From: Escherichia coli
GTDB lineage: Bacteria; Pseudomonadota; Gammaproteobacteria; Enterobacterales; Enterobacteriaceae
Direction: 5' to 3' (one strand)
Length of the DNA stretch: 64,000 nt
Assembly (NCBI RefSeq): GCF_041886205.1
Contig: NZ_CP169029.1
Position numbers and translations under genes: made by a program. Under the pieces are notes generated by a model that ran no database searches, was not told where the DNA came from, and saw only the letters and a list, made by a program, of their open reading frames with translations. Positions 1-19,622 of the stretch are shown one piece after another (the first letter of the stretch is position 1; every line of letters begins with the position of its first letter).

Positions 1-148
1 GATCGCGCCCATACAGCCACTCCAGCGCGTGGTCTATCTGCCGGGCGTTGTCATCCAGCCCACAAAGGGTCGTTTCTGCCGCTTCGCCAAGAATTAATCG
101 CCAGCGTTGTAGCTCACGGGTGGTCAGAAGATCGTTCAGTTCAGACAT
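1..148 (-). CDS. yehP: N-terminal fragment of YehP (vWA-domain partner of the MoxR ATPase); gene runs off the window edge
   Basis: Minus-strand ATG at 148..146 translates MSELNDLLTTRELQRWRLILGEAAETTLCGLDD.... It overlaps the yehM stop in an ATGTCTGA arrangement. Identity is from gene order and recollection; the vWA domain itself is outside the window. Confidence 0.5.
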   Translation of the reverse strand, partial: MSELNDLLTTRELQRWRLILGEAAETTLCGLDDNARQIDHALEWLYGRD

Positions 149-2420
149 GGAAAACTCCCCAGTGTTGCAGCGATGCCAGTGCCTGCTGTTCGAGTTGTTG
201 ATGATGTGCAATGGCTTGCGGTGGACAATGCAACGGTATTTGCAGCGCCGAAACGGGAAGTTGCGCCAGTTGATAATGCTCAAGCACCTGATGCGCCAGC
301 GTCCCGCGTTCTCGTGGTGGTAGCCAGGCCATCGCCGCGCGTAAATCGGGCAGGGCATTGATAAAATCGGCATCACTCAGTTGATTTAAATGACTGCTGA
401 AACCGGCGATAAATGCCGGCTGACAAGCCAGTTGATGACGGGCTAATGCCAGCAAACCGTGCAGCGCCTCGCCGGATTGGGCCGGGGATAACTGCGTCAG
501 CATTGTCAGCGCCGCTTCGGCACTAGCGTTGGGATGTTCCAGACGCATCAGTGCGCCAAGAGTCGCGCCGCGATCCAGCGCCGGGGCATGAATCGCCTGA
601 CTGCGGCGCTCCAGTAAGGCTACCGCCGCAGAAAGCGAAACGCCGGATAAGTTAACGCCGCTATGTAGATCGCGCAGGATATGGCAAAGCGCTTGCCAGC
701 TATGCAGGTGAGCGTGAAACTCCTTTTCATCCGGTCTGCCGTTGGATTCACACAGCCACAGCGTGCGATCGATAGCCGCGCATAACGTCGTTTGTAATAT
801 CTGCGCGCCTTGCATACCGCTAATTTCATCCAGCCGCCATAAGGCATATAGCACTTCCAGCGCCTGGCCCATTTCGGCAAATTGATTTTCCTGGGCGATT
901 AATAATGTGAGTTGTTCCAGTAATTGCTCACTAAAGCTCGCCAGGCCCGCTAACGCCGCCTGGCTAAGACATGCGGTAATGCTGCCGATTCCACCCGCGT
1001 CCAGCATATCGGCTTCTAATTTATTGCGTGCGGCTTCCTGGAGTGTTGCACCAAAGCAGGCGGCCTCAATCAATGCCGCATGCTGGCTAAGCGGGCGGGT
1101 TAATTTCCAGCGTTCTTCACCGTTGCCTGCAAGTGTCAGTGTACTTCCCTGCTGGCGTAAAATCCCTGGGATCTCCAGTATTGCCAGCCGATGTAACACC
1201 TGACTTTGCGCTAGTCCATTGGGGTTAAAGCGATTTAAGGTAAGCTGCGCCGGAAGAGAGATTCCGGTACGTTCCAGTTCGCAGGTGACATCTTTTGGCA
1301 GAGGCGGTTGTGGCGTGGAGGGGGCAAGTTTACCGAATCCGTCACCCGCTAATGTGTCTATCAACGTTAGCAGAATCGGATCGGTATCGGGATGAATAAC
1401 TCCGCGATAGCTCCACGGCAACGGCGCGTTCAAGGCTTCTTTAATCAGCGAGCCTGCTATGGCATCCAGCCAGTCAGTGCGTAACGGTAGTGTATGACCG
1501 CGCAACTGTGCCAGTGCCATTGCATGCAGATGTGCGGCAGCCATATCAGCGGTAGAAGCGGGCAATTTGTGCTGGCGCAAACGGGTGAGAACCGTTTTTA
1601 GCAGTTGTTCTCCCGCCTGCTGTAAGCCCCACTGCCAGCACCAGTTTTGCCAGACCGGAGCAGGCATTCCGGAAAGGTATCCTGCCAGCACATCAAGGCG
1701 CTTTTCGCTGTATGGCGTGAGATAACAACCTGTAACGGCATCATCCTGTGAGGGCAATTCTGGCTTGTTAATTTCCTGCGGGCATTCGCGCCACATTTTT
1801 GCCAGTGCCGGAGCGTGCCAGCCACCGCAGACGACTAACACGTCGCCATTGTTTTGCAGCATCGCCCATCCAATCCAGCGGGCCATAAAGGCTTCGCGCT
1901 GACGATTGAGAGCATCTCCGGGGGAATCGCCCCGCAGTTGGGCAAAATAGTGCGCCAGCGCAGAGGGTAATGCAGTTTGCTGGCTTTCATCTTCGAATAA
2001 GTGATCCCACAGGGTGTCGCTGTTATCCATGCGGGTGGCACGCAGCAGCAAGGCCTGGCTTTCCTCTTGCGTATCAGGCGAATCGTCCTCTTCTTCACTC
2101 TGCGCCCAGCAAGGCAAATCGATGAAGTAAGTTTGTGCCTGAATACGACGTGCGGCTTGTAGCGCCTGCCACTCCGGCGAAAATTCAGCAAATGGCGTCC
2201 AGGCACCGCGCCCGGGGGCCGTACCGTCCTGATACTGGCAATAACTGTAAATAGCTACCGGAAGCTGGTGGGCTAAAAACAGTTCGTCTACCCGGTCATT
2301 AAAATCAGCCGGGCCTTCAATCAACACGTATCGTGGCCGCTGGCTTTCGATTAACGATTTCACCAGCCGGGCGCTGGCCGGGCTATGATGCCGGATGCCG
2401 ACAATTAACGGCTCGCTCAT
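141..2420 (-). CDS. yehM: YehM, large uncharacterised protein (about 760 aa) encoded with the MoxR ATPase
   Basis: Long ORF in the track; start placed at internal ATG 2420 (MSEPLIVGIRHH) with an upstream aggaaag RBS, 10 nt after the yehL stop. The track's upstream extension would overlap yehL. Confidence 0.8.
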   Translation of the reverse strand: MSEPLIVGIRHHSPASARLVKSLIESQRPRYVLIEGPADFNDRVDELFLAHQLPVAIYSYCQYQDGTAPGRGAWTPFAEFSPEWQALQAARRIQAQTYFIDLPCWAQSEEEDDSPDTQEESQALLLRATRMDNSDTLWDHLFEDESQQTALPSALAHYFAQLRGDSPGDALNRQREAFMARWIGWAMLQNNGDVLVVCGGWHAPALAKMWRECPQEINKPELPSQDDAVTGCYLTPYSEKRLDVLAGYLSGMPAPVWQNWCWQWGLQQAGEQLLKTVLTRLRQHKLPASTADMAAAHLHAMALAQLRGHTLPLRTDWLDAIAGSLIKEALNAPLPWSYRGVIHPDTDPILLTLIDTLAGDGFGKLAPSTPQPPLPKDVTCELERTGISLPAQLTLNRFNPNGLAQSQVLHRLAILEIPGILRQQGSTLTLAGNGEERWKLTRPLSQHAALIEAACFGATLQEAARNKLEADMLDAGGIGSITACLSQAALAGLASFSEQLLEQLTLLIAQENQFAEMGQALEVLYALWRLDEISGMQGAQILQTTLCAAIDRTLWLCESNGRPDEKEFHAHLHSWQALCHILRDLHSGVNLSGVSLSAAVALLERRSQAIHAPALDRGATLGALMRLEHPNASAEAALTMLTQLSPAQSGEALHGLLALARHQLACQPAFIAGFSSHLNQLSDADFINALPDLRAAMAWLPPRERGTLAHQVLEHYQLAQLPVSALQIPLHCPPQAIAHHQQLEQQALASLQHWGVFHV

Positions 2421-2430
2421 GCATCTTTCC

Positions 2431-3519
2431 TCACGGCAGGCGGTGGCGGGCTTGATAATAAGCCTGCCAGTGAGCTTCTTTATGTGTGGCGACTCGCTGT
2501 TCGAAGTAACGGCGCAGACGAGCGCGATCTTCTTCGTTATCTTTGACGATGGTTCCGGCAATACAGTCCACCAGATCGGCTGGCTCACCTGCGCGATTCG
2601 CTAAAAACCAGGCGCGGACGCCCACAGCGTGGGCCACGTTCACGGCTTCAGCGGTGGACATAATCGCTGTTAGTGTATCCATTGACGTTTTCTTTTCGCC
2701 GTTGGCACGCAGATCGCGGAAGGTGCGGACCAGTAACTCCAGTACCGCGTCAGGCACTTTATGCGGAATACCGCTATGGGCCAGCAAACGCGCCGAAGCA
2801 CTGGCGACCAGTTCCAGCTCCTGAGCGAAATCCATAATCGGAAAGACAGTTTCAAAATCGAAGCGACGCTTTAGCGCAGCACTCATCTCATTGACGCCGC
2901 GATCGCGCGTATTGGCAGTGGCAATAATATTAAAGCCTTCCCGCGCATAGAGTTGACTGGCTTCACCAGTGAGTTCCGGCACCGTCATCACCCTGTCAGA
3001 AAGCATACCTAACAGACAGTCTTGCACTTCCAGCGGTGTACGCGTTATCTCTTCAAAACGGACGATTTTGCCGTCGCGCATTCCCTGGTAAAGCGGGGCA
3101 GGGACCAGCGCTTCCGTTGATGGACCATGATTGATAAGCAGAGCGTAGTTCCAGCCGTACTTGATTTGATCTTCAGTGGTAAATGCGCCGCCCTGGATGG
3201 TTAACCCGGCATCGCCGCTAATAGCGGTTGCCAGTAATTCAGACAGGAGAGATTTTGCGGTGCCCGGTTCCCCCACCAACATCAAACCGCGCCCGGTGGC
3301 AAGAGTGACTAACATACGTTCGACAGCAGAGGGACTAATCACGACTTTACGGCTAATATTTTGCGCGCTATCGCCAAGGATAAAAGCACGTGCCGCAGGC
3401 AAACTTAACTGCCAACCGGGCGGGCAAGGTGCGTTATCATTTTGTTTTAATTTTGCCAGTTCATCGGCGTATAACACAGCGGCAGGCGGACGCTGCAGAT
3501 GATTATTCTGCGGTGACAT
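2431..3519 (-). CDS. yehL: MoxR-family AAA+ ATPase
   Basis: Walker A motif LVGEPGTAKS and a Walker B-like FEEITRT segment are visible. Start taken at MSPQNNHLQRPP (ATG 3519), giving about 362 aa. Confidence 0.85.
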   Translation of the reverse strand: MSPQNNHLQRPPAAVLYADELAKLKQNDNAPCPPGWQLSLPAARAFILGDSAQNISRKVVISPSAVERMLVTLATGRGLMLVGEPGTAKSLLSELLATAISGDAGLTIQGGAFTTEDQIKYGWNYALLINHGPSTEALVPAPLYQGMRDGKIVRFEEITRTPLEVQDCLLGMLSDRVMTVPELTGEASQLYAREGFNIIATANTRDRGVNEMSAALKRRFDFETVFPIMDFAQELELVASASARLLAHSGIPHKVPDAVLELLVRTFRDLRANGEKKTSMDTLTAIMSTAEAVNVAHAVGVRAWFLANRAGEPADLVDCIAGTIVKDNEEDRARLRRYFEQRVATHKEAHWQAYYQARHRLP

Positions 3520-3629
3520 ATATTCATCCCTGAAATGTATTAATGAAATAAACGATATTTTACGCGCAATAAATGTTTGGCGCATTAGTTGTTTGAGCGA
3601 AAAATATCTGGAAAGCAGATCACAGTAAA

Positions 3630-3662
3630 TAAAAAAACCTGCTGGTGAGGCAGGTTCTTTTA
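3630..3662 (-). terminator. Rho-independent terminator downstream of yehK
   Basis: Minus-strand hairpin cctgcctcaccagcagg followed by a run of seven T. Confidence 0.6.
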
Positions 3663-3825
3663 TTTACTATTTTCAGGCCTAACACCACAGCCTGTGCAAC
3701 ATCGTGTTCCAACGAACGAATTATAACCACGGCTGGACCCCGTTGCAATTAAGATAATGAGATTTATAATCCAGACCGTTGGGACGTTGCGCCGGATCGG
3801 ACCAATTTGAATTATTTAGAGTATA

Positions 3826-4143
3826 TTATTCTATTTCTTGGTTGAATATATTCTGTAGTTCACGATTAAAAATTGCTATTACAGTTTCAGGTGATTCACC
3901 TCGTAATTTCCGCTCATCAATACACTCATCTCTTATATAAATCAACGCATCATTTATTAGCGGGTCAGCATCTTCTCGATCACGTTGATGAAATGTTGGA
4001 TGTAGCCGGAATCGCTCCAGTCGATAGACGGAACCTGTAAATAATTCAGAGCATTTATGGATCTCAAGTCTGAAGGAAAACGGATCTTCAGGTACAGGGA
4101 CCTCATAATCGTAAATAGCAACCAGCTCTTTTTGCACGATCAT
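3826..4143 (-). CDS. yehK: YehK, small uncharacterised protein (105 aa)
   Basis: ORF of the expected size and position, directly downstream of yehI. Confidence 0.8.
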   Translation of the reverse strand: MIVQKELVAIYDYEVPVPEDPFSFRLEIHKCSELFTGSVYRLERFRLHPTFHQRDREDADPLINDALIYIRDECIDERKLRGESPETVIAIFNRELQNIFNQEIE

Positions 4144-4202
4144 CGCTTTCCCGTTGGTAAGTCGTGTTGAAAACGGGCAGTCGCATCACTGCCCGTTGTG
4201 TT

Positions 4203-7200
4203 TTAATGGAAAATGACGTCGGGTGCGCTTAACGCCTCACTCAAATCAAACACATCAAGTGCGGCAAAAGTGACGGATTTATTGTCACGGTACACCCGAA
4301 GAGAACGGAAGCTCATCAGCGCTTTGCTATCAGCACTGTAGTAGTTAAAACCGGGTGAAAACTTAAGGACCAGCCGGTACTCACCTAAGTCATAGACAAA
4401 TGCGTCCTCATAGCCTGACTCCCAGCCTTTGTATCGCATTCCCATAAGCTGCCCAACGGTAGCGGATTTACCTTCCCAGCGAGTCAGGCTGTTACTGGTT
4501 GACTCGTCAGGTGTGAGCAGCACCGTGCGGCGCGACAACTGGCGAAAAGGCGGCATAATTTCGTAATCGGCAAAAAGCTGTGCAAATTCACTGCGCATTT
4601 CTGCTGTCATTTCTAACGGGTGGGCAATGCCAATCAGAGCGTCCGCAGGCAGGTCAATGGGCTCATCTTGTGCATTGCAGAATTCCCCCTCTGCGGCCAC
4701 ACGAAAGGTGTTGAGTAAACGACGTGGTTCATTTGCCGGATAAACCCCCCATATTAATCGCTGGGTAACCAGGCGGGTAAAGGGATGATTAACAAAAAGA
4801 GAATGAAAATCTGCCAGCGACCAGCGTCGGGTGGTGCGTAGGGCAGTTTCAAGACGCGGGAGCAGGTTTTTGCTCACCTGAGTGGCATCTTTTTTTAGCC
4901 CTTTTAGTCGGGCCAGTGCCTCGGGCGCTTTCAGTTGATCGTCATCGGCGCGCAACCGGGGAACACTTTTCTGGCGAACGTTTTGTTGATCGTAGATAAC
5001 CGGGTTGAGGTTTTCATCGAAGCGAACGGTAAACTGCCGGGGACCAAAATCAAAAATCAACGCCTGCGGATCATCAAGACCCAGTGTTGGGACTAATCTG
5101 TCCGCTAACTCTTCCTGGCTTAGCCCGCGATTTTCTGCGACCACCTGAAGAAATTCCGCTGCGTTTTCACGTAATGAAGAGGATTTCGCCCGTTGTGATA
5201 CATGATGCAGCTGTATCAGCGCCATATCATTATTCATCAGGGTGAGTATATTCAGACCACTGACAGCACGGGCAGATTTGCCTTCTTGTGGCCAAGCGAG
5301 GATCTGTGTTGTTAGATCCCGTGCCGTGCTTTCGTCACCAAAGAGACTTAACGCCAGAAATGCCCAGTTGTCTTTTGCGGGGGCACCAGCTTGTTGCCAT
5401 GCGGTGAAGAGATCCCAGGCAAAAGCTGCCAGCGTTTGCGGCTGGCAGAACGTTTTCAGTTGTTCCAGCCCGCTATAAAAACGTCCCCCTTGGGTAAAGC
5501 GCAGCATTTCGCCAATAATTTCCAGAGCGTCATCGGTAACAGGTTGATTATTAGTGATAAGGCGCGGCCTGGACCACATTTGCGGATGCCAGAAATCAGG
5601 GGCTTTTGGAATGCGTGCCGGGTAAATCTCTATTGGACTCTGTTTAAGTAATTGTTCCAGGGCAGGCCATACATCAGCGCGATCCCAGCGGTTTGCCACG
5701 GTTTGTAGTAATACGCCATGTCCCTGTTCGTAAAGTAAACGCAGGGCAAGTAATGCAGCTTCGCTATTATCGCTGGATTTAGTGAAGACAAGAGGGATAA
5801 GTGCAGTAGCCGTATGTTCCGGCCATTGTAAAATCCACTGGCGAGCCAGATCACGCTGCGCCGCGAAACGTCGCCAGACGCGGGCAACAGGCAGCGCCAG
5901 TTCTGTTGCGCCGAAATGAATCAGCAGCGGAAATATCTCTTGTGGATGTCGGGCAAAGGCGGTGTTTAATCCAGGCAAAGCATCGGTAGCCAGCACACTT
6001 AACAGATATTCCACCCCAGTGTAATGAAAATCAGCATCGACAATTTGTTGCCAGCACGATACCGCCATTTCGCGCGGCATCTGCGCGATAAGGTACAGAT
6101 TCCAAATCCCCCAACGCTTTTCATTACCATAGTAAAATTCGTGCTGAAAAGTTCGCCACCCTTCCATCAACGCAATGCAATCTTGTGCCAGTAATGCTTT
6201 GGTGGCTTCTTCACGATACTGTTTAGATTTGGCCTGATGCGCGTGATAAGTACGCAATAGTCCTATTGATGTGTATTCTTGCAGTTGCTGAGCATCAAAG
6301 GCATCCAACTGTCCATTAAGAAGATGCTTATTAAATTCCAGGCTATGAACGTCAAAACCTAATTCCCGCAAGAAGGTATCCGCCCCTCTCTTAGCAATAC
6401 GTTCGTCAAAAGACATGGCGCTAAAATGGTCAATTGCAGTTTGCTGTTCCGGCGTCCAGTGTTTATTCGGCGACCTGTACGTTTGCGGTGCAAGCGTAAG
6501 ATCAGGCAGCGAAAAGTGAGGTATGGAAGTCTTTTTCTTCCTCCCACGCCATGGTGGTGAAACGAGGATTTCAGGCATTTGGCTGTTATCGGTACTATCA
6601 ATAACCGGTTTGGGCGGTGCCAATAAATAACTATTCAGTACTGCCCGGGCTTGAGTACTTAACCACTGCATCACCTCTTCTGCCAGTTGTGGCTGCGATG
6701 CCATCAGCGTTTGTAACAGCGTACGCCAGTATTCATCTCGAGCTTTTTGCTGGGCAGGCAGCTTTTTGTCTTCGATGATTGGATAACCAGGGCGGGCTGG
6801 TGGTTCTTTTAACGCCAACAGTTCTGCCAGTGCCGCGAGCGTCGCGTGGGGGAAGTTTTTACTGTATTTAGCCACACGTTGCAGGCTGGGTTTGTTTTTA
6901 TCAGCCACCAGTAGCAAGGTGCGGATGACCTGCGGATGGTTAATTTGTACCAACAGACTGCCGCAATCTTCTTTATGGGCATACATCGCGAGGCGCGGAA
7001 TGGCTGCCAGTCCTTGTTCGCGCAAAAGGGCGGCGCAGGCCGCGTAGCCGAAGTGGTTTTCATGCGACATGTAGCTGGCTTCGCGATCGCTAAATATATC
7101 CTGACTCCAGTAGTGATCGAGTTTCCTCACCGCTGTGGGGTCATTAGCAACAACTTTTAGCCACTCCTTAGAATGATAATGAGTCCGTGGGCATTCAAGG

Positions 7201-7850
7201 CCTATCAACTCATTGGCGATTTCTGGTTTTTCCGGGAGGATCAGCGCAATAAAAGGGCGGCGAACTTTGGTTATTCCTGGCAGTGCGGCAATGAGTTTGT
7301 CGGCGCAACGCTGCCAGCAGCTTTCCTCTGCCAGAGAGAGATGCTTACGCAGTCGGAGATCGAATTCGTTATAGGTTTCTGATCGATAACCATAGCCATA
7401 GTCCTCGTTCTGATACTGCAATGTCACTACCAGAGGATCACTCTCATAACACCGCGCAATAAACTGGCGTGCAATCACCACCTCAGTCGCATATTCCAGT
7501 CCCTCTTGTTGGACGATTTCGTCGAGCAACTGTTGGCTGTCATTTTGCGCGATACAGGCTAGTGCCGCCATTGTGCGGGCCGGGACTGAGGGTTTGTGTT
7601 CGCCGATCAAGTTGATGGCCTGCGTAATGGCGGACTGCCACTCCAGTGAAAAATTTTCATAACGCCAGACAATGTTTTTTTTCTTCTCAGCTTTTTGTAG
7701 CAATTCATCACCCAGTGTCTGAATGATGCTTTCAGTGATAACAGGCACCGGTTCGCCCGGCCATTTGCGATGACTGAGTGGTGTTTTGCCTTTTTTATAT
7801 TTCAGTTCCAGTTGGGCGTTATCCGCCAGCCACGGTAATTCCTTGTCCAT
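4203..7850 (-). CDS. yehI: YehI, giant DUF4132-family protein (1215 aa), paralog of MolR without the N-terminal WGR region
   Basis: ORF starts MDKELPWLADNAQ, which aligns to MolR at about residue 100 (LLPWLADGAQ). The C-terminal two-thirds is colinear with both molR copies. Confidence 0.9.
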   Translation of the reverse strand: MDKELPWLADNAQLELKYKKGKTPLSHRKWPGEPVPVITESIIQTLGDELLQKAEKKKNIVWRYENFSLEWQSAITQAINLIGEHKPSVPARTMAALACIAQNDSQQLLDEIVQQEGLEYATEVVIARQFIARCYESDPLVVTLQYQNEDYGYGYRSETYNEFDLRLRKHLSLAEESCWQRCADKLIAALPGITKVRRPFIALILPEKPEIANELIGLECPRTHYHSKEWLKVVANDPTAVRKLDHYWSQDIFSDREASYMSHENHFGYAACAALLREQGLAAIPRLAMYAHKEDCGSLLVQINHPQVIRTLLLVADKNKPSLQRVAKYSKNFPHATLAALAELLALKEPPARPGYPIIEDKKLPAQQKARDEYWRTLLQTLMASQPQLAEEVMQWLSTQARAVLNSYLLAPPKPVIDSTDNSQMPEILVSPPWRGRKKKTSIPHFSLPDLTLAPQTYRSPNKHWTPEQQTAIDHFSAMSFDERIAKRGADTFLRELGFDVHSLEFNKHLLNGQLDAFDAQQLQEYTSIGLLRTYHAHQAKSKQYREEATKALLAQDCIALMEGWRTFQHEFYYGNEKRWGIWNLYLIAQMPREMAVSCWQQIVDADFHYTGVEYLLSVLATDALPGLNTAFARHPQEIFPLLIHFGATELALPVARVWRRFAAQRDLARQWILQWPEHTATALIPLVFTKSSDNSEAALLALRLLYEQGHGVLLQTVANRWDRADVWPALEQLLKQSPIEIYPARIPKAPDFWHPQMWSRPRLITNNQPVTDDALEIIGEMLRFTQGGRFYSGLEQLKTFCQPQTLAAFAWDLFTAWQQAGAPAKDNWAFLALSLFGDESTARDLTTQILAWPQEGKSARAVSGLNILTLMNNDMALIQLHHVSQRAKSSSLRENAAEFLQVVAENRGLSQEELADRLVPTLGLDDPQALIFDFGPRQFTVRFDENLNPVIYDQQNVRQKSVPRLRADDDQLKAPEALARLKGLKKDATQVSKNLLPRLETALRTTRRWSLADFHSLFVNHPFTRLVTQRLIWGVYPANEPRRLLNTFRVAAEGEFCNAQDEPIDLPADALIGIAHPLEMTAEMRSEFAQLFADYEIMPPFRQLSRRTVLLTPDESTSNSLTRWEGKSATVGQLMGMRYKGWESGYEDAFVYDLGEYRLVLKFSPGFNYYSADSKALMSFRSLRVYRDNKSVTFAALDVFDLSEALSAPDVIFH

Positions 7851-7859
7851 GCTCTTTCC

Positions 7860-10800
7860 TTATTCAAACAGGGCTTCAATATCGTTAATTAGCTCGCTGG
7901 CGGTGATGGCATCGAGTACGGAGAACTGCGCTTCCTGTGTTGAATTACTCCCCCAGCCATAGCTTTCCGCTTTGCCTTCCCATAACCACAGCTTGCTTAA
8001 GAGCTGCTCAGCGCTAAGTTCGGCTGGTGACATACCCACCGCAAAACCTTCGTCGATTTCCATGATTAACGACCAGCGACCCAAAGGTTTGATCATCCAT
8101 CCGATCCAGCCTCCATCCTGTGGTTCGCCCTTTATCCAGCCTTTATTCGCCAGCCCCATGACCCGACCACTCGGGCATTTTCTGCCTGCCCAGCGGGTCA
8201 GTTCACTGGCATTGCGCTCGGCTTCTGTCAGGGCGTAGCTGTTACGGTCGAGCTGGCGGAACGGTGGTAGCAGTTCGTAGTCGGCAAAAAGCTGACCAAA
8301 GGCGGCAGCATCCGTTGGTGATATTTCCAGAACGTGAGGAGTGCCGATAGAGATATCGCCTTCCGGCAGGGTGAAAAGATCATCGTCAGCGGTGCTGTAG
8401 CTGTTATCTTCTGCTACGCGAAAGCAAGCCAGTAGCTGGTTTTCGGCGCTATAAACGCCCCAAATCAGACGGCGGGTTAAGTGACGAACCAGCGGATGCT
8501 CAACCAGGAAGAGCTGGAAGTTTTCCAGCGACCAGCGGCGGCGCAGGCACATGGCGGATTCCAGCCTTGCTACCTGCTGGGCGGCGACGGTACGCGCATC
8601 TTTTTTCAGCAGTTTGTAGCGGTTAACAGCATCGTTCGCCTGTGATTCATCATCGCTTTTGTTTGGTTTGGGCAGGTCTTTCAGACGGCTGCCGGAAGCG
8701 TCACGCACAAACGGTTTTAAGGTTTCATCAAAGCTGACGGTGAACTGGCGTGGGCCGAAATCCAGCAGCAACGAACCGTTATCATCCAGACCGAGATCTG
8801 GTGCTAACCGATCTTCAAGCTCCGCCACCGTGAGTTCGCGGCTCTCGGCAATATCGGCAATTTTCTCTTTTGCCCGCTCCTGTAAAGCTTTGAATTTCAG
8901 TTTCTGAGCAATGCCGTTAAGCTGCATCAGAGCAATATCACTACCGATAGCGGCGAGGATATCAAGCCCGACGGTGGCGCGTTTATGCTGGGATTCGCCA
9001 GGCCAGGCGCGGATTAATGGCGTCAGTTTGCGGGCGGTGTCATCGTTACCGAGAACGCCTAACGCAGTGAACGCCCAACTCTCTTTCGACGGCGCGCCAG
9101 CGGTCTGCCAGGCGGTAAACAGATCCCAGGCAAATTCAGCCAGTGAGTCGGCGGTACAGGCGTCTTTCACCTGTAATATTCCCGGATACAGAACCTCTTC
9201 CTGAGGGAAGCGGAGCATTTCACCGAGGTGGAGGAGGGCTCTATCTGGCAGTGATTGGGCGTTTGCTTTTAATACCGGGCGCGTCCAGAGCGATGGTTGA
9301 TAAAAGGCCGGAAGAGTGGGGATTTTTGTCGGGTGATTATCTAAGGGATCGAGCGCAAGCAGAGCGTTCACCGCATCGGTTACTTCCGGCTGGTTATAAC
9401 GTCGGGCGATTTCTTGCAGTAATGGCTGATGACCGTTTTCGGTAAGCATACGCAAGGCAGCGCGGGCGTTATCCTGTGCTTCACCGGCTTTGCCGAGCGC
9501 CGCAGGCAGCAGGCCGGTAAGGGCATGTTCCGGGTATTTCAACAGCCAGCTACGGGCGTTTTCGCGTAGCGTTTTGAGTTTGTTGAAGGCACGGGCAATC
9601 AGTGGCGCTAATTCGATAGCCGCAAAATATTGTGCTACAGGCAGCGCTTCTTGCGGATAGCGAGATGCTGAGTGGATAAAACCTGTTAAACCAGCAAGTC
9701 GAAGATGCAACATTACTTGTGTTGCACCTGTATGTGGTTCTTTACTAAGGATGTTCCACATCTCGATAGCTTTATTAATGGGTAAAACATGGAGTGAAGA
9801 AAGATTCCATTCGCCCTGATAAGGGGAGTTATAGGACTTAAAAGCATCAATCAGCGCTGAATAATCTTCACGCTGCAAGGCATCCAGTGCTATTTCTGGA
9901 ACATCAATATAGCCTCTATGTTTGTTCCAATCCCAGCGGTTGAATCCCAGGGAGGTCAGAAAAGCTTTTTCTCCCTCAGCTTGCTGATGAGGTTGCCAGT
10001 TATGCTGCACTTGCAGTGTTTTGCTTTTTGTTTCATTTATTGTACAGAAGGATTCTAGGGATAATGGTGCTAAATCCAGCACCGAAATCGTCGATTTTTT
10101 CTTTTTAGCCAGCCAGGGCGGTGAGACTAATACGGCAGGCAGCATATCAGCGTTCGCATAAACTGAAGGTTGTGTCAGTTGTTGCTGGCATGACTTAAGA
10201 ACGGTAACTGCCGGGGCAGATAGCCAGGAGATTACCCGTTCTGCTAATGTTGGTTGTGAGATAAGCATTGTCATTAGCATCATGCGCCAGCGCTTTTCAT
10301 CTTTTTTTGCCAGAAGTTCTGCTAATGCCGCCAGCGCTGCATGTGGAAAGCGAACGAAAGCCTTTGTCATGCGATCGTGGCAACGCTTTCCCTGCTCGCT
10401 TGCATGGATAAGTAGTGTAAGTGCCTGCGGGTGGTTGATATGCATCAACACTTCACCACATGTGTCACCAGCAGCGTAAGGAGCAAAACGGGCCAGCGCA
10501 GCGACACCTTGCTCCTTGAGTATCGTTGCGCACCAGATTTTACCTCCGTAATAATCATCAAATACCTGCCCAGGCTGTCCTGGATAGTATTTTCCCAGTT
10601 CTGCCAATACCTGCTCGTCAGCGGCCGTCAGTTTTAGCCATTCCAGCGCATATAACCCTTTTTGTCCGCAAAGATGTCTGGCAATCTCATGAGCTATTTC
10701 TGGTTTTTCCGGCAACAATAGTGCAACCAGCGGCTGGTGCCAGGTGGGCATGTTTCCGAGAGCGGCAATCAGTTTGTCGGCGCAGCGCTGCCATACATCG

Positions 10801-11618
10801 TCATTTGCAAGTGAGAGATGCTTACGCAGGCGCATTTCAACCGAAGCGAAGCGTAACAGATAGCCAGGCTGCCTGTTATCCGGGGTAACCGTAATGAGAT
10901 GGGCATCATAATCCCAGTCGAAGCGGATGAATTGCAATGCAATGACAACCTCAGTGGCATATTCCAGACCACCTTCCTGGACAATTTGATCCATTAACTC
11001 TTCATGATCGTTACGATTGAAGCCTTGTTCCAGCGCAACCAGTACCGCCAGTACCATCGGAGGTAGCGTGGTGCTAATTGGCGAGTCGATAAGGCCTACT
11101 GCTTGTGTAATTGCCTGCTGCCAGTCGAGTGAACAGGTACTGTAATCGAAGGTGAGCACCTTTTTAAAACGCCGGTGAGTATTCGCGGCAACGGTGCGTA
11201 GCAGGGTTAATTCATCCTCCTGCTGCACCGGATCGCCAGGCCAGCGTCGATGACTGAGTGTGGTTGGCGCAATCTCTGTCGGTAACATGATTTGGGCACC
11301 GTCTGCCAGCCAGGGGAGGAGGTCACCAGCAAATGCTGGTTTGTCTTGTGGCAAAGGGGTAATTTCAGGGCATTCAATAACCTGGCCGGGTGCAAATGTC
11401 GCTGTCATCACGGATACTTCTTCTACGTAGCCCTTTTTTGTTTTCTCCGCAATCAGCTTCAGCTCCGCTTTTTCCGCCGCCGCAGCATCTGCAAAGCTTT
11501 TTACCTGACTTTGCCCGTTACTGCCGACTTTACCCCAGTTAATATGCAGCTCGTTTCCCTGCTGCTCCACCGCCCAGAATTTATGTGATTTTTCGTCCTG
11601 ATAAATATAGGTTTTCAT
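7860..11618 (-). CDS. molR: MolR-like giant protein (1252 aa), intact, with N-terminal WGR-like domain plus DUF4132-type body
   Basis: N-terminus MKTYIYQDEKSHKFWAVEQQGNELHINWGKVG carries a WGR-like motif. There is a 9-nt gap to yehI. To my recollection molR is a fragmented pseudogene in K-12 but is intact here. Confidence 0.85.
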   Translation of the reverse strand: MKTYIYQDEKSHKFWAVEQQGNELHINWGKVGSNGQSQVKSFADAAAAEKAELKLIAEKTKKGYVEEVSVMTATFAPGQVIECPEITPLPQDKPAFAGDLLPWLADGAQIMLPTEIAPTTLSHRRWPGDPVQQEDELTLLRTVAANTHRRFKKVLTFDYSTCSLDWQQAITQAVGLIDSPISTTLPPMVLAVLVALEQGFNRNDHEELMDQIVQEGGLEYATEVVIALQFIRFDWDYDAHLITVTPDNRQPGYLLRFASVEMRLRKHLSLANDDVWQRCADKLIAALGNMPTWHQPLVALLLPEKPEIAHEIARHLCGQKGLYALEWLKLTAADEQVLAELGKYYPGQPGQVFDDYYGGKIWCATILKEQGVAALARFAPYAAGDTCGEVLMHINHPQALTLLIHASEQGKRCHDRMTKAFVRFPHAALAALAELLAKKDEKRWRMMLMTMLISQPTLAERVISWLSAPAVTVLKSCQQQLTQPSVYANADMLPAVLVSPPWLAKKKKSTISVLDLAPLSLESFCTINETKSKTLQVQHNWQPHQQAEGEKAFLTSLGFNRWDWNKHRGYIDVPEIALDALQREDYSALIDAFKSYNSPYQGEWNLSSLHVLPINKAIEMWNILSKEPHTGATQVMLHLRLAGLTGFIHSASRYPQEALPVAQYFAAIELAPLIARAFNKLKTLRENARSWLLKYPEHALTGLLPAALGKAGEAQDNARAALRMLTENGHQPLLQEIARRYNQPEVTDAVNALLALDPLDNHPTKIPTLPAFYQPSLWTRPVLKANAQSLPDRALLHLGEMLRFPQEEVLYPGILQVKDACTADSLAEFAWDLFTAWQTAGAPSKESWAFTALGVLGNDDTARKLTPLIRAWPGESQHKRATVGLDILAAIGSDIALMQLNGIAQKLKFKALQERAKEKIADIAESRELTVAELEDRLAPDLGLDDNGSLLLDFGPRQFTVSFDETLKPFVRDASGSRLKDLPKPNKSDDESQANDAVNRYKLLKKDARTVAAQQVARLESAMCLRRRWSLENFQLFLVEHPLVRHLTRRLIWGVYSAENQLLACFRVAEDNSYSTADDDLFTLPEGDISIGTPHVLEISPTDAAAFGQLFADYELLPPFRQLDRNSYALTEAERNASELTRWAGRKCPSGRVMGLANKGWIKGEPQDGGWIGWMIKPLGRWSLIMEIDEGFAVGMSPAELSAEQLLSKLWLWEGKAESYGWGSNSTQEAQFSVLDAITASELINDIEALFE

Positions 11619-11630
11619 TGCTAAATCCTT

Positions 11631-14600
11631 TTAATCAAACAGTGATTCAATATCGTTAATCAGCTCGCTGGCGGTGATGTCGTCGAGCACGGAGAAGGGA
11701 TAAACCGATTTGCGCGGCGTCAGTTTGCACAACTGAATGTGCTCAATTTTTTGGCTATCGCTGATTTCGGTGACGGGCAATCCAACGCAGAAGCCTGGTG
11801 TCACACTCAGTTCGACGTAGCCATCATCCACAGATTTATAAAATGAGTAATAGCCGCCACCATCCAGCACATCGCCCCGTTGCCAGCCTTTATTCATCAG
11901 CCCGGCGACGCGCCCACTCGCTGCCTGGCGACCAGCCCAGCGCTGCAAATCGCTGCTGCTTTTTTCTGTCTCAGAGAGCTGAGACCAGGGGCGATCAAGT
12001 TGACTGAATGGTGGCAATAGTTCGTAGTCAGAGAACAGTTGTGCAAATTCAGCAGCCTGCGGGGCCGGGATTTCCAGTACATGCGGGATACCGATACTGC
12101 CCTGCGCAAGGGTTAACGGGTTATCCTGACCGTCGCTAAAACTGCCATCCTCCGCCACGCGGAAACAGGAAATAAGCTGATTATCAGCGTCATAAATGCC
12201 CCACATCAGACGTTGGGTGATATGACGAACCAGGGGATGCTCAACCAGAAACAGGCGGAACTGTTCTGCAGTCCAGCGGCGACGCTGACACATGGCGGCT
12301 TCCAGACGCGAAATCTGTTGTGCAGCTACCGTGCGGACATCTTTTTTCAACAACTTGTAGCGATTTACCGCTTCCTCAGCCAGCGTTTCATCATCGCTTT
12401 TGTTCGGTTTGGGCAGATCTTTCAGACGGTTGCCGGAAGCTTCGCGCACAAACGGTTTTAAGGATTCATCAAAGCTGACGGTGAACAGGCGTGGGCCGAA
12501 ATCCAGCAGTAGTGAGCCGTTATCATCCAGACCGAGATCGGGGGCTAACCGGTCTTCCATCTCTGCGACGGTGAGCTGGCGGCTTTCGGCAATCTGGGCG
12601 ATTTTAGTTCTAGCCTGATCCTGCAAGGCTTTAAATTTTAGCTTTTGCGCAATACCGTTAAGTTGCATCAGGGCGATATCGCTGCCGATAGCAGCAAGAA
12701 TATCCAGCCCGACAGTGGCGCGTTTATGCTGAGATTCCCCCGGCCATGCGCGGATGAGCGGGGTGAGTTTGCGGGCGGTGTCATCGTTACCCAGAATCCC
12801 CAGTGCGGTAAATGCCCAGTTATCTTTGGCTGACCCGCTTGCAATCTCCCAGCTCAAGAAGAGATCCCAGGCGAAATCGGCAAGAGACTGCGGGGTACAG
12901 GCCTCGATTACCTGTGTTATCCCCGGGTAAAGGGTGGCTTCGCGGGGAAAAGAGAGCATGGTGCACAGTTGCAGGATAGCTGAATCCGGAAGTGCCTTGC
13001 CGTTACTGCGCAGAAGCGGGCGGTGCCATACTTCAGGGGTACACCAGGCGGGGAGTTTAGCGATTTTCTGCGGAAAATTATCGAGGGGGTCGCTGTTAAG
13101 AACATCTAACAAACCCGTAAGCACTTCTGCCTGATTATAGCGGTGGGCAATTTCTTCCATTAACGGCTGATGCCCATGATGAGCCAGATAGCGAATTGCC
13201 GTAGCGGCGTCTTCACGCTCACTACCTGCTTTTCCCAGCACGGAAGGCAGCAGGCCCGTAATGGCATGTTCCGGATAGGTTAACAACCAACGTTCAGCAA
13301 CATCACGTACAGATTTAAGCTGACGAAAGGCGCGAGCCATTAAGGGGGCTACTTCGGTTGCGCCAAAACGTGCCGCTAAAGGAATGGCTTCCTGAGGTAC
13401 GACTAAGGCGCGACGCAGCAAGCCGGGCAATGTCGGAAGACCGTAATATTCCACTACTTCACATGCGTTAATCAGATGTAGGTGAGTCAGTGCGTTCCAT
13501 ATTTTCAGTGCTTTATTTTCTGATAACTGAAGCAATACCGACACATTGACAAGGATATGACTTGCCCACCGAGGTTTATCCCAGATCTTTAATAAAGCTT
13601 CGTAATTGTCCTGCTCGAAAAAATCAATGGCAGCCTGAGGTATACCCCAACCAAGCTCTTCGCAATGGAAGTTCAACAAATCCAGGATATCTTTCGCTGA
13701 TGGGGATGGCGCAGATGGCTCAGTCAGATTTTTTGTTGCGGGGATAGATTCAGGGGGGGAAGAGGTAATACCCGGAGAGTGAGGTTGATACCAGCAATCT
13801 TTTTCTTTTTTTCCAACCATGAAGGGGCGATCAATATACTGGGTAATTCATTCTTATGAGCAATTTTTTCGATGGACATAAGCTGAGGAAAATAACTAAA
13901 TAAAATTTGTTGCTGTTTTTCGTCAAGCCAGGGAAGCGTTTTATGTAAGGCTTGCGCATTACCCAAGATGATGCGCTGCAGTAAACGATAATAGTGAGAG
14001 TTATTTGTGTAATTTAAGGCTTTTGTTAATGCATAAAGTGCAGCTTCAGGATGTAAATTTGTTGCGTGTTCCACTTCACTGATACATTCTTCTTTTATTA
14101 ATATATTAATGGCGTCAGGATGATTAACTTGTGTAATTAGATTTTTAACTGAATAACTATCCTTTATCCATGGCTGAAGAAGTGGAAGAGCTTTTACCCC
14201 TCGTTCACGCAGTAATGTCGCAGTGCATTTTTCCGCCGTCTGCCAGTCGTTATAGCGCTTAAGTTGGTTAAGATTCATCAATTCATTGAGTGCCTGCGGA
14301 TCTGTGGCAACGATATCCAACCATTCCATTTCTGGGTAATTAGCACATTGCACTAAGTCAAAGACAATTTGATTAGCAATTTCAGGTTGTTCAGGCAAAA
14401 GAAAACCTATTAAAGGGCGTTTACGTGGAGACAGGGAAGGCAACGCTTGAGTAAGCTTTTTCATGCACCGTTGCCATGTTTTTTCATCAATACGCGAGAG
14501 ATGATTTCGCAAGTGAAAATCTACAGTGCTGAAGCCGAATTCAAAACGTTGTTCTGATATTGTGTTACTTAGAATAAGCGTTGGTACGCAATTTTTTGTA

Positions 14601-15370
14601 AAAAAATTGTATCCCATGCGAACATACAAAAGGCATTTATCTAAAGCTTCACAATTTCCCGGATCTTGATTTTGATCATCTGATATCTGAATTTGCTGTA
14701 ATAGCAAGACTAATTCGGTCGCGTATTCTACCCCATGCTGTTGCGCCAGATAATCAAAAAGATCATTAGCGCTATCGCTATCTTGCATAAGAAACTTGAC
14801 CAGCAAAAAGAATGCATTGGAGAAAATCGAACCGTCTATATTTTTCTGCTGAACGCGCATGATTGCTTCATCCCGGCCTCGTTGCCATTCCGGGCGGCAG
14901 TCACTCACATCAAAATGCTGTAATTGTGCAAGAAAATAGTATTCCTCATATTTGTTTTCCCATAAGAGTGACCATAACGAGATATCTTTAGCAAACGTCC
15001 TGACACTGTCGGCTGGGAATTTCCTACTGCTAAATACTCTCTTTGTTTCGAGAATGATTGGTTCAAGGTCCGCAATCCACGGTGGTGTGTCGACATCAGT
15101 AATAATTGGATGTTGTTCGCTATCATCAGCTGTGGTGGGAACAGTTATCAGCATGTTTATATCGTCAGTCGATTTTACATACCCCTTCTTCACCTTCTCC
15201 GCAATCAACTTCAGCTCCGCTTTTTCCGCCGTTGCAGCATCCGCAAAACTTTTTACCTGGCTTTGCCCTTGGGTGCCAACTTTTCCCCAACTGATATGCA
15301 ACTCGTTTCCCTGTTGCTCCACCGCCCAGAATTTATGTGATTTTTCGTCCTGATAGATAAAGCGTCTCAT
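11631..15370 (-). pseudogene. Second MolR paralog (WGR + DUF4132), split into 548-aa and 729-aa ORFs by a frameshift
   Basis: ORF 13724..15370 starts MRRFIYQDEKSHKFWAVEQQGNELHISWGKVG. ORF 11631..13820 continues colinear with molR. The two frames overlap at 13724..13820, which contains a G7 tract (13753..13759) and a T6 tract (13729..13734). Confidence 0.8.
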
Positions 15371-15469
15371 TCTGCATCCCTGTAATTTTATCCAGTTGAA
15401 TGCAGATGCTACCAGTATTTATGCGGGTTAGAGAGAGACAAAATCGCAAGAAAACAACTTTAGGAATTT

Positions 15470-15502
15470 ATAAAGAAAAGGCGCTGTCGATGCAGCGCCT
15501 TG
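15470..15502 (-). terminator. Rho-independent terminator of metG
   Basis: Minus-strand hairpin aaggcgctg/cagcgcctt followed by a T-rich run, just past the metG stop. Confidence 0.6.
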
Positions 15503-15510
15503 AAGGGGGA

Positions 15511-17544
15511 TTATTTCACCTGATGACCCGGTTTAGCACCGGCATCCGGGCTTAGCAGGAAGATATCTTTCCCGCCAGGACCAGCAGCCATTACCATGCC
15601 TTCGGAGATACCAAAGCGCATTTTACGCGGCGCCAGGTTAGCCACCATAATGGTGTGACGACCAATCAGAGCCTGCGGATCCGGGTAAGCAGAACGAATG
15701 CCGGAGAAAACATTACGTTTTTCACCGCCGAGATCCAGTGTCAGTCGCAGCAGTTTGTCAGAACCTTCAACAAACTCTGCATTTTCAATCAGCGCCACGC
15801 GCAGGTCAACTTTAGCGAAGTCGTCAAAGGTGATGGTTTCCTGAATCGGATCGTCTGCCAGCGGGCCAGTAACTGTCGCGGCAGCTGCTTTCACTTCTTC
15901 TTTAGAGGCTTCCACCAGTGCTTCAACCTGCTTCATATCGATGCGGTTATACAGCGCCTTGAACGGATTCACTTTGTGGCCCAGCAGCGGTTGCTGGATA
16001 CCATCCCAGGTCAGTTCCGTATTGAGGAATGCTTCTGCACGCTCGGTCAGTTTCGGCAGTACCGGCTTCAGGTAAGTCATCAGCACGCGGAACAGGTTTA
16101 TGCCCATTGAGCAAATTGCCTGCAGGTCGGCATCGCGGCCTTCCTGTTTCGCCACAACCCACGGAGCCTGTTCATCGACATAGCGGTTAGCCAGATCAGC
16201 CAGCGCCATGATTTCGCGCACGGCTTTACCAAATTCGCGGCTTTCCCACGCTTCACCAATCACTTCAGCGGCATCAGTGAAGGTTTTGTACAACTGCGGG
16301 TCAGCCAGTTCGCTTGCCAGCACACCGTCAAAACGCTTGTTGATAAAGCCCGCATTACGAGAGGCCAGGTTAACCACTTTGTTAACGATATCGGCATTCA
16401 CGCGCTGAACGAAATCTTCCAGGTTGAGATCGATATCATCAATGCGCGAAGAGAGTTTCGCAGTGTAGTAGTAACGCAGGCTGTCAGCGTCAAAATGATT
16501 CAGCCAGGTGCTGGCTTTAATAAAGGTACCGCGAGACTTAGACATCTTCGCGCCGTTCACCGTCACATAGCCATGAACAAACAGGTTGGTCGGCTTGCGG
16601 AAGTTGCTGCCTTCCAGCATTGCTGGCCAGAACAGACTGTGGAAGTAAACAATATCTTTACCGATGAAGTGGTACAGCTCGGCGGTGGAGTCTTTCTTCC
16701 AGTATTCATCGAAGCTTACGCTGTCGCCGCGCTTGTCGCACAGATTCTTGAAAGAACCCATATAGCCAATCGGCGCATCTAGCCAGACGTAGAAATATTT
16801 ACCCGGCGCGTTCGGAATTTCAAAACCGAAGTACGGCGCGTCGCGGGAGATATCCCACTGTTGCAGGCCGGATTCAAACCACTCCTGCATTTTATTTGCC
16901 ACCTGCTCCTGCAACGCACCGCTGCGGGTCCATGCCTGCAACATTTCGCTGAAAGAGGGCAGATCAAAGAAGAAGTGTTCAGAATCACGCATTACCGGCG
17001 TAGCGCCAGAAACCACCGATTTCGGCTCGATCAATTCAGTCGGGCTGTAGGTCGCGCCGCAAACTTCGCAGTTATCGCCGTATTGATCCGGGGATTTACA
17101 TTTCGGGCAGGTGCCTTTCACAAAACGGTCCGGCAGGAACATGCCTTTTTCCGGATCGTACAGCTGAGAGATGGTGCGGTTTTTAATAAAACCGTTTTCT
17201 TTCAAGCGAGTATAGATAAGCTCAGACAACTGGCGGTTCTCTTCGCTGTGCGTCGAGTGATAGTTGTCATAGCTGATGTTAAAGCCTGCGAAATCAGTCT
17301 GATGCTCCTGACTCATTTCGCCAATCATCTGCTCCGGGGTGATACCAAGCTGCTGAGCTTTCAGCATGATTGGCGTACCGTGGGCATCGTCGGCGCAGAT
17401 GAAGTTGACCTCGTGGCCGCGCATTCGCTGGTAACGGACCCAGACATCAGCCTGGATGTGCTCCAGCATATGGCCGAGGTGGATTGAGCCGTTAGCGTAC
17501 GGCAGTGCGCACGTCACCAGAATTTTCTTCGCGACTTGAGTCAT
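15511..17544 (-). CDS. metG: Methionyl-tRNA synthetase
   Basis: Start [26 protein letters not shown] carries the class I HIGH motif, and KMSKS is present; about 677 aa. Confidence 0.97.
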
Positions 17545-17675
17545 AGTAGGCATTACTTCTTAATAGTGAAAAGGGGTTAGATAGTACCAAATGGGAAAAT
17601 GTTAAGTAAGTACTTCTCTATATTCTTCAGGTAAACTATCAGCTGATGGTTTATCTATACAAAAAAGGAGTCGGG

Positions 17676-18785: not shown

Positions 18786-18814
18786 CGCCTATTAACCATT
18801 CTGGTTATTTTTCA

Positions 18815-18856
18815 TACACCGCAGAGATGTTACATTGATGCGGTGTATTTGTTTTT
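18815..18856 (+). terminator. Rho-independent terminator after apbC
   Basis: Hairpin acaccgca...tgcggtgt followed by tttgttttt. Confidence 0.55.
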
Positions 18857-19047
18857 GCCGCATTAATGAACACTTATTTAATACTGCGAATATTCTGCGG
18901 ACCTTCGTCCGAAACTCTACAAAGTCGATTGATCGTACAGGCAATGCTTCATTATCATCCTTCGTGGCTGTGTAGTGGATGTACAGCTATAGTTTGTTAT
19001 GCACTCATTCTATCCAGGCATAACCTTTACTACAGGGATAACGTTCA

Positions 19048-19329
19048 ATGAATAAGTATTGGCTGTCAGGAATTATTTTTCTTGCCTATGGATTGGCTTC
19101 TCCCGCATTCTCTTCACAGACTGCCACATTATCGATTAATGGCAGGATCAGTCCCCTAACATGCAGTATGACTATGGTTAATAGTCAACCTCAACAGCAT
19201 TGTGGTCAGTTAACGTATAATGTCGATACCCGTCATCAGGTTTCTTCGCCCGTCAAAGGTGTAAAGACAGAAGTGGTTGTTGCAGGTAGTGATAGCAAAC
19301 GTCGAATCGTGTTAAATCGATACGATTAA
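19048..19329 (+). CDS. yehE: YehE, small secreted protein (93 aa)
   Basis: ORF with a signal-peptide-like N-terminus, positioned before yehD. Confidence 0.8.
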   Translation: MNKYWLSGIIFLAYGLASPAFSSQTATLSINGRISPLTCSMTMVNSQPQQHCGQLTYNVDTRHQVSSPVKGVKTEVVVAGSDSKRRIVLNRYD

Positions 19330-19360
19330 TTTGGCAACCTGATTTTAATTGCATTTAGAA

Positions 19361-19399
19361 AGCCGAAATCATTTATATAAATGATTTCGGCTTTTTTTA
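19361..19399 (+). terminator. Rho-independent terminator after yehE
   Basis: Palindrome agccgaaatcatttatataaatgatttcggc followed by ttttttt. Confidence 0.7.
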
Positions 19400-19622
19400 T
19401 TGATATCAATAATACCATTTACATAAATCTACATTAATTAATAGATGCGATAAATATTTAATACTCTTAAGTATTTGTTGTATTTATATTGCATTGGTTA
19501 ATTTGTTTTAAATCAATAAAACAATATGTTTACATTGCGGCAACTTTTTTGATGTGAGAAATTTGTTTCCAAGAGATACAGACTCTTAACAACCAAAAAT
19601 AAATTTTATTAAGGAACATATT

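Follow-up and report, generated by a model that had tools for sequence, protein, structure and literature searches.

What do the large, uncharacterised genes that follow metG in Escherichia coli do, and do they work together? The question is raised here by a 64,000-nucleotide stretch of E. coli DNA (contig NZ_CP169029.1), the whole of which we refer to as the window, in which a block of molR-like and yeh genes encodes giant WGR–DUF4132 proteins, a MoxR-type AAA+ ATPase (YehL) with its von Willebrand factor A (vWA) partner (YehP), and the DUF5682 protein YehM. An earlier note, made from the sequence alone, had divided this block into two units and read it as a candidate sensor or conflict system, adding that no biochemical function had been assigned to any of the products; no published function was found in the literature searched. 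We find that the block is one operon-like cassette of five families, made up of one to four MolR/YehI proteins together with YehL, YehM, YehP and the SWIM protein YehQ, and that it ranges over at least five bacterial phyla. Its best explanation, which we hold with a little less than even confidence, is an intracellular conflict or stress-response system whose task is the surveillance of DNA damage or of invading DNA.

A single five-family cassette

The association of the five families was followed in a one-genome-per-species scan, which found DUF5682 in at least 561 species out of about 100,000 and from which the best 80 loci were analysed. These loci come from Entero-, Beta- and Xanthomonad-type Proteobacteria, Myxococcota and Actinobacteria, and families were assigned within them by open reading frame (ORF) calls and jackhmmer. 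Genes for DUF4132 proteins lie in the same locus as yehLMPQ in 75 of the 77 evaluable loci, across three phyla and nearly always directly upstream, and all five families (DUF4132, AAA_5, DUF5682, VWA_CoxE and SWIM) occur together in 72 loci. The gene order is near-universal among the 80 loci, with one to three DUF4132 genes followed by AAA_5, DUF5682, VWA_CoxE and SWIM. Long DUF4132 copies number one in 40 loci, two in 23 and three in nine, and such tandem paralogue expansion recurs in unrelated taxa. Serratia fonticola carries WGR–DUF4132, AAA_5, DUF5682, VWA_CoxE and SWIM genes in another genomic context and with short gaps only, Klebsiella grimontii has metG, two DUF4132 genes and then the four engine genes directly, and a contig from Acidobacteria shows the same cassette layout. 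The two-unit picture therefore gives way to a single cassette. Linkage between the MoxR/vWA genes and the WGR–DUF4132 genes, whose absence the earlier note had named as evidence against its own reading, is thus conserved in the loci counted above and on the Acidobacteria contig, and none of the domain searches of the block proteins pointed to an ordinary metabolic function.

The hairpin terminator at which the earlier note had drawn the boundary between its two units is real, but it is the terminator of a small RNA (sRNA) of the OrzO/P family and does not delimit an operon of the system; relatives have no such gap. It had also been asked whether the genes sit in variable regions. Flanking genes are poorly shared between loci even within genera (by a crude test), so that context does vary; in Escherichia, Klebsiella and Intestinirhabdus yehLM occupies a fixed site.

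The cassette is also carried on plasmids, namely a 76-kb plasmid of Iodobacter and megaplasmids of Streptomyces, and Rhizobium plasmid records match as well; matches to plasmids labelled as E. coli were set aside, being mostly mislabelled chromosomes. Carriage by phages was rejected, the sole YehM match in a phage-genome search being weak, partial (27% identity) and on an unannotated metagenomic contig. This distant DUF5682 relative lies at 11208-12770 of MT835988.1, a 14-kb metagenomic contig labelled 'Bacteriophage sp.', and aligns over 515 amino acids. Among PHROG families, phrog_36295, 30700, 33984, 29006, 20839, 36602 and 31592 give near-perfect full-length matches to YehK, YehM, YehQ, MolR and YehP. 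We do not take these as a sign of phage origin, since the families are near-identical to E. coli proteins and most likely represent chromosomal DNA in prophage calls.

Engine proteins and giant proteins

Conservation of sequence motifs in the engine was assessed in phmmer alignments over about 80 species from three phyla, which include 81 YehL sequences. YehL matches AAA_5 in Pfam (7.8e-34), has the midasin AAA modules and MoxR (2r44) as its closest solved sequences, and possesses the Walker A lysine, the Walker B acidic pair, the sensor-1 asparagine and the arginine finger, with K89, E156, E157, N203, R218 and R219 conserved in 100% of the sequences. The Walker A motif GEPGTAKS had been read correctly in the earlier note; the Walker B motif (residues 153-160) is VRFEEITR, with Glu–Glu rather than the usual Asp–Glu in 81/81 family sequences. 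YehL gives its name to the YehL subfamily, one of seven MoxR subfamilies (PMC3893208). Its partner and presumed co-chaperone YehP, which is 378 amino acids long when taken in full from a near-identical record, matches VWA_CoxE in Pfam (5.6e-70) and is encoded beside yehL in nearly all loci. The chain terminates with the vWA domain, and the residues of its metal ion-dependent adhesion site (MIDAS; D222, S224, S226, T281 and D307, in the pattern DxSxS...T...D) are invariant. Two CxCx5CxH SWIM zinc-finger signatures can be read in the E. coli YehQ protein; the first shows 100% conservation, and about half of the species retain the second. The Pfam SWIM match is weak (1.6e-3). Sequence searches of the PDB with YehP, YehQ and YehM returned no match.

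YehM, in which the earlier note could assign no motif, matches DUF5682 at 2e-98. Its AlphaFold2 (AF2) model, with a predicted local distance difference test (pLDDT) score of 93.5, comprises a domain resembling the TIKI/TraB/ChaN/erythromycin-esterase (Ere) proteins (about residues 1-250), which shares the α/β fold of that superfamily, followed by a HEAT-like solenoid. Two GxxH motifs, G8-x-x-H11 and G199-x-x-H202, together with E35 make up a candidate active or metal site, and 85 sequences show no change at H11, E35, G199 or H202. YehM is a putative metal-dependent hydrolase joined to a HEAT-like scaffold. Natural fusion proteins of DUF5682 and vWA domains exist.

The giant proteins are built in a different manner. 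The 1252-residue second copy (MolR2) matches both WGR (PF05406, 1e-17) and DUF4132 (PF13569, 1.3e-50) in Pfam, and runs from the WGR domain through a variable solenoid to a conserved C-terminal module of HEAT-like and DUF4132 α/β regions. The metG-proximal first copy (MolR1), which is frameshifted, has the same WGR N-terminus, so that two of the three giants do start with WGR as had been proposed, and the motif KFWAVEQQGNELHINWGKVG that had been quoted is present. YehI gave no WGR-type N-terminal match in the profile scan and aligns with MolR2, from its residue 101 onward, at 38.6% identity. A protein of Leptospira with the architecture WGR–LRR–DUF4132 shows the middle repeat module to be swappable.

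Within the giants, conservation is concentrated at the C-terminus. The last ~550 residues, in which an LPKPxxxDD loop is invariant and an FADYEILQPF motif is found, have a mean column identity of 47% across phyla, and the C-terminal 553 amino acids of MolR2 give a model with a pLDDT of 94.1, in which HEAT-like repeats precede an α/β region; this DUF4132 α/β part has no relative among solved structures, and a sequence search of the PDB with MolR matched only the WGR domain (2ra8, PARP3). MolR1 and MolR2 are 89% identical in the C-terminal block and 26-38% identical in the N-terminal and middle regions, while MolR2 compared with K-12 molR is 94.7% identical in the C-half and about 70% in the N-half. 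The same holds in other taxa, where the C-terminal module is better conserved than the preceding 550 residues in 27/27 within-locus paralogue pairs.

The earlier note had given all three giants a length of about 1215-1250 amino acids. This stands for YehI (1215) and MolR2 (1252), and not for the metG-proximal copy, which in the window is split into ORFs at 13724..15370 (548 amino acids) and 11631..13820 (729 amino acids) and which is intact, at 1246 amino acids, in the nearest record. The frameshift consists of the loss of one C at about 13750, where the window reads TTCAGGGGGGG and 6/6 other carriers read TTCCAGGGGGGG. As all six other carriers of this rare allele have CC, the lesion is specific to the window sequence, whether through true mutation or through an error of assembly. 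A slip in the G7/G8 homopolymer was ruled out as its cause, since the missing base is a C beside the G-run. The N-terminal half of this copy is low in guanine plus cytosine (GC) content, at 0.39-0.42 over 13500-15000. That molR is a pseudogene in K-12 was stated before and is confirmed.

The same contrast between engine and giants is seen within the species, for which counts were made over 5,426 complete E. coli genomes. The pair yehL–yehM is present in 5,333 of them (98%), almost always at 95-99% identity, whereas few genomes match the N-halves of the giants with a coverage of 80% or more, namely 8 for the first copy, 22 for the second and 48 for yehI, most other genomes giving partial matches of 60-95%. 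The full three-paralogue layout is rare, with 5/5,426 genomes covering at least 80% of positions 1-15500 of the window, and the number of giant genes in E. coli ranges from two to at least four. Of nine genomes inspected, three are fully intact and six carry one or more pseudogenes of the system, the gene affected differing among them; four of the six have internal stops, which are therefore not homopolymer assembly errors. Transposons and insertion sequence (IS) elements have been reported to insert or to cause deletions at the block (PMC9334617, PMC12795559).

Regulation and candidate function

The strongest clue to function, which the earlier note missed, is regulation by DNA damage in two distant lineages, through LexA in enterics and DdrO in Deinococcus. 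In the window an SOS box, CTGGATAAAATTACAG, ends 10 nt upstream of the start codon of the first molR-like gene, with similar boxes at the same place in K. grimontii and Intestinirhabdus alba, and molR is found in the published E. coli LexA regulon, among the genes for which an SOS box is known (PMC6590174 Table 1). With a box in its promoter region and this published listing, molR is a member of the LexA regulon as judged from sequence. Many other CTG-N10-CAG matches were rejected, as they correspond to the codons for the WGR motif FWEVEQ. Two genes of Deinococcus radiodurans, DRA0166 (DUF4132) and DR2173 (WGR), are mitomycin C-inducible members of the DdrO/IrrE radiation-desiccation regulon (PMC8533742). 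Control by LexA and DdrO would fit a role in surveillance or repair of DNA damage just as well as one in conflict. A further layer of control is known from K-12, where H-NS binds upstream of yehL and where hns/stpA mutants show raised levels of yehL and yehM (PMC3686432).

In the mechanism that we propose, DNA damage or foreign DNA would free the DUF4132 genes, which head the cassette, from repression by LexA; only the LexA/SOS regulation of molR in this step has published support, and we infer the steps that follow. MolR and YehI would then act as interchangeable receptors, in which the WGR domain would bind breaks or ends of nucleic acid, variable ligands would be recognised by the fast-diverging N-terminal solenoid and the conserved C-terminal HEAT and DUF4132 module would dock on the invariant YehLMPQ engine. 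A YehL hexamer and the YehP MIDAS would use ATP to remodel or gate this complex and so form a threshold switch, a part that has been proposed for MoxR–vWA couples in conflict systems (PMC7159879). The switch might finally govern YehM, as a hydrolase, and/or YehQ, acting on a DNA- or protein-bound target. That YehM is a hydrolase and that these WGR domains bind DNA is presumed here from family resemblance, and read-through from the SOS promoter into yehLMPQ is likewise presumed.

The sensor or conflict interpretation of the earlier note is plausible and unproven; the linkage on which it leaned is strongly supported. The interpretation fits the locus because hypervariable N-halves stand beside a conserved engine and paralogues have expanded recurrently, and also because independent pseudogenisation is frequent, H-NS silences yehL and yehM and context varies within genera. 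A bolder form of it, which we consider doubtful, is that the cassette represents an unrecognised class of innate immunity or genome surveillance, in which hypervariable WGR–solenoid receptors, induced by DNA damage or invading DNA, load via DUF4132 onto a MoxR/vWA switch that licenses a TIKI-like protease. It is just as doubtful that such a pathway, diversified in its receptors and executed by a protease, works like NLR- or PARP-based sensing from different parts.

Several observations weigh against a surveillance or conflict role. No experiment connects any of the proteins with a phenotype in phage or plasmid challenge or in DNA repair. In PADLOC-DB v2.0.0 none of the 8 proteins had a significant family match, the sole match being DpdF at chance level (0.0068), and scans of NCBIfam and PHROGs were not informative. 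Most defence systems are sporadic, and here yehLM is core in E. coli and holds a fixed site in the three enteric genera named above. The block encodes no classical toxic effector domain (nuclease, TIR or pore-former), and its frequent pseudogenes could reflect relaxed selection. When LexA-type (proteobacterial) and GAAC-N4-GTTC (actinobacterial) boxes were searched for ahead of the first DUF4132 gene in the 45 loci with enough upstream sequence, SOS-type boxes were found in enterics and in none of the non-enterics, and no Cheo-type boxes in the actinobacterial loci searched. In E. coli, moreover, yehK, the sRNA terminator and the H-NS-bound region separate the giants from yehL, and co-transcription with yehL from the SOS promoter is therefore unproven.

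Much of this evidence can be read in other ways. A machine for repair or tolerance of DNA damage with no conflict role, in which WGR would recognise breaks as in PARP, SWIM together with MoxR/vWA would clear or process stalled protein–DNA complexes and YehM would cleave a DNA-bound protein or adduct, is in our view unlikely, if the most serious competitor. WGR and SWIM are nucleic-acid-associated families, and WGR has been termed DNA-binding (PMC7824862); the SOS box of molR, the Deinococcus regulon with its mitomycin C-induced DUF4132 and WGR genes, and the near-universal engine of E. coli all agree with such a role. Hypervariability between strains, tandem expansion and breakage in many lineages, however, are unusual for repair factors, and the patchy phyletic distribution (at least 561 species out of about 100,000), the variation of context within genera and the restriction of SOS-type boxes to enterics among the 45 loci also speak against it. 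The pseudogenes themselves suggest that the E. coli block might be a decaying relic with no current function, its variability the product of drift and of recombination among tandem paralogues; the lesions in six of nine genomes and in different genes, the frameshift in the window itself, the H-NS silencing of yehL and yehM, and the transposon and IS insertions or deletions at the block (PMC9334617, PMC12795559) point that way. We hold this to be improbable, more so than any other explanation weighed here, given that yehLM is kept in 98% of genomes at 95-99% identity, that three of the nine genomes are fully intact, that the catalytic motifs are invariant over about 80 species and three phyla and that both AF2 models are highly confident.

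The old name of molR suggests a further direction. MolR as a transcription factor or molybdate regulator was rejected as a sufficient explanation, because it is a 1,250-residue solenoid protein tied to an ATPase machine and because molR is a pseudogene in K-12. A maturation chaperone like CoxD/CoxE, NorQ/NorD and CbbQ/CbbO, which would insert a metal or cofactor into a client or remodel it with the giants as client adaptors, and which might through the name molR be linked to molybdenum, seems distinctly unlikely as well. YehP does belong to the CoxE-type vWA family (5.6e-70), all biochemically studied MoxR–vWA pairs are maturation factors (PMC3893208, PMC7159879), and molR was named in a 1990 genetic report on molybdate utilisation, as cited in PMC8533742. 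Against this, no candidate client enzyme turned up in the neighbourhoods, in which no search aimed at clients was made; flanking ORFs are mostly unshared within a genus, with different neighbours in Serratia, in Klebsiella and on the Acidobacteria contig. K-12, where molR is a pseudogene, uses molybdate normally. Hypervariable adaptors, LexA control and H-NS silencing would be unexpected for a housekeeping maturase, and the molybdenum genes of Deinococcus are not co-regulated (PMC8533742).

Set beside known systems, the cassette is that of the YehL subfamily of Snider and Houry, with YehL as its type member and YehP as the adjacent vWA protein; no function, client or wider cassette has been described for this pair in the literature searched. 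YehL–YehP shares the AAA_5 domain, the MIDAS and the pairing in an operon with RavA–ViaA, CoxD–CoxE and NorQ–NorD, and is set apart by the invariant Glu–Glu Walker B and by being always embedded with DUF5682, SWIM and DUF4132 proteins. There is also a resemblance to the vWA–MoxR conflict systems (VMAP, iSTAND and related) proposed by Kaur, Burroughs, Iyer and Aravind (2020), which also have a MoxR–vWA core of CoxD/CoxE ancestry with sensor and effector components, include a component that diversifies between strains and a peptidase-like component, and are likewise enriched in Actinobacteria, Myxococcota and Betaproteobacteria. The diversifying part in the yeh cassette is, in contrast, the N-half of separate giant WGR–DUF4132 proteins; VMAP, iSTAND, a β-propeller third component and effectors fused to the C-terminus of the vWA protein are all missing, and the bpMoxR model scores at only 0.0049. 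As the defining third components and the vWA-fused effectors are absent, and as the paper makes no mention of YehL, SWIM, WGR or DUF4132 (PMC7159879), we do not regard the cassette as a ternary system of that type.

Individual parts have relatives of their own. Among the members of the TIKI/TraB/ChaN/erythromycin-esterase superfamily are the RRSP toxin protease and the HopBA1 effector; YehM differs in being fused to a HEAT-like solenoid of ~500 amino acids and coupled in an operon to MoxR/vWA. With PARP-type WGR sensors two of the giants share the N-terminal WGR, weakly similar to that of PARP3, and DNA-damage-linked expression, but they have no PARP catalytic domain, join WGR to a helical solenoid and DUF4132, and are accompanied by YehI, which has no WGR.

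E. coli has two MoxR ATPases, of which RavA has long been studied and YehL has been without a known role, and a set of y-genes and DUFs now becomes a defined five-family system with a conserved engine set against a variable, putative receptor. Handles on it are offered by its spread over five or more phyla and no fewer than 561 species, by the predicted enzyme YehM, by an entry through LexA/SOS that is paralleled by DdrO in Deinococcus, and by residues that can be mutated. If the cassette is a damage- or invader-triggered system, it would be a new architecture for bacterial immunity and would give functions to three widespread families (DUF4132, DUF5682 and the YehQ-type SWIM proteins); should it instead serve repair or maturation, a long-unexplained member of the SOS regulon would be accounted for.

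Layout of the block and other features of the window

Every ORF of the block that was named in the earlier note exists, and all are co-directional on the minus strand, as had been described. As the window is 99.97% identical to E. coli wlxctx60, an isolate from bear faeces, the annotation of the latter can be transferred onto it. Transcription runs from metG through WGR–DUF4132 copy 1, copy 2, yehI, yehK, yehL and yehM to yehP, and the fifth system gene, yehQ, lies just beyond the window edge. The tight packing that had been reported also holds, with gaps of 9 and 12 nt between the giants and of 10 nt between yehL and yehM, and with the start of yehP overlapping the end of yehM in ATGTCTGA, shared with the yehM stop codon. 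The upstream limit of the block is the metG terminator, and the 140-nt intergenic region between metG and molR is 100% identical to that of K-12. Coordinates are collected in the table.

Table. Positions of metG, the genes of the molR–yeh block and associated signals in the window.
Feature	Position	Strand	Remarks
metG	17553..15511	minus	upstream neighbour of block
metG intrinsic terminator	15478..15501	minus	9-bp stem, 6 G-C pairs, then TTCTTTAT
LexA (SOS) box CTGGATAAAATTACAG	15395..15380	minus	CTG-N10-CAG; read directly from sequence
first (metG-proximal) molR-like gene	15370..11631	minus	WGR-DUF4132, frameshifted
second molR-like gene	11618..7860	minus	1252 aa; WGR and DUF4132
yehI	7850..4203	minus	1215 aa; DUF4132 without WGR
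yehK	4143..3826	minus	105 aa; no recognisable domain
OrzO/P-family antitoxin sRNA gene	3706..3631	minus	Rfam RF02083
yehL	3519..2431	minus	362 aa; MoxR-type AAA+ ATPase, AAA_5
yehM	2420..141	minus	759 aa; DUF5682, with N-terminal TIKI/TraB-like domain and HEAT-like solenoid
yehP (5' end)	148..1	minus	CoxE-type vWA partner; runs off window edge

The stretch between yehI and yehL does not belong to the conserved cassette and is an insertion specific to Escherichia, which holds yehK and the remnant of a type I toxin–antitoxin locus. YehK has no match in Pfam, PADLOC or NCBIfam, its gene is present in only one of the 80 loci (Escherichia whittamii) and missing from the Klebsiella and Serratia loci, and the region is low in GC (0.43-0.45). 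The sRNA matches RF02083 over its full length (1-76) at 99.9 bits against a gathering score of 60; a promoter-like TTGCAA-17-TATAAT lies upstream of it at 3748..3720, and its hairpin has a stem at 3656..3636 followed by a T-run. This is the position between yehI/yehK and yehL at which the zor-orz type I toxin–antitoxin locus is known (Fozo et al. 2010; PMC2887945). The O157:H7 locus has two sRNAs and two toxin genes of 29 amino acids (5421-5496, 6032-6105, 5742-5831 and 6351-6440 in the comparison record), whereas in the window, as in K-12, only the yehL-proximal Orz sRNA is left, and no ORF for the 29-residue ZorO/P toxin was found. The sRNA is thus an orphan remnant of zor-orz, unrelated to the MoxR system and outside it.

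Two observations concern the DNA beyond metG. A trough in GC content (0.36-0.41) at 18500-20000, between apbC and the yehABCDE fimbrial operon, is typical of horizontally acquired, H-NS-type DNA. Further on, an IS1 element at 22942-23709, with InsA, InsB' and inverted ends of 23 nt, interrupts the fimbrial usher gene yehB; it is flanked by direct repeats at 22930-22941 and 23707-23718, in which ACCGTCTTTCCG is duplicated, and this copy is absent from the otherwise 99.97%-identical wlxctx60.

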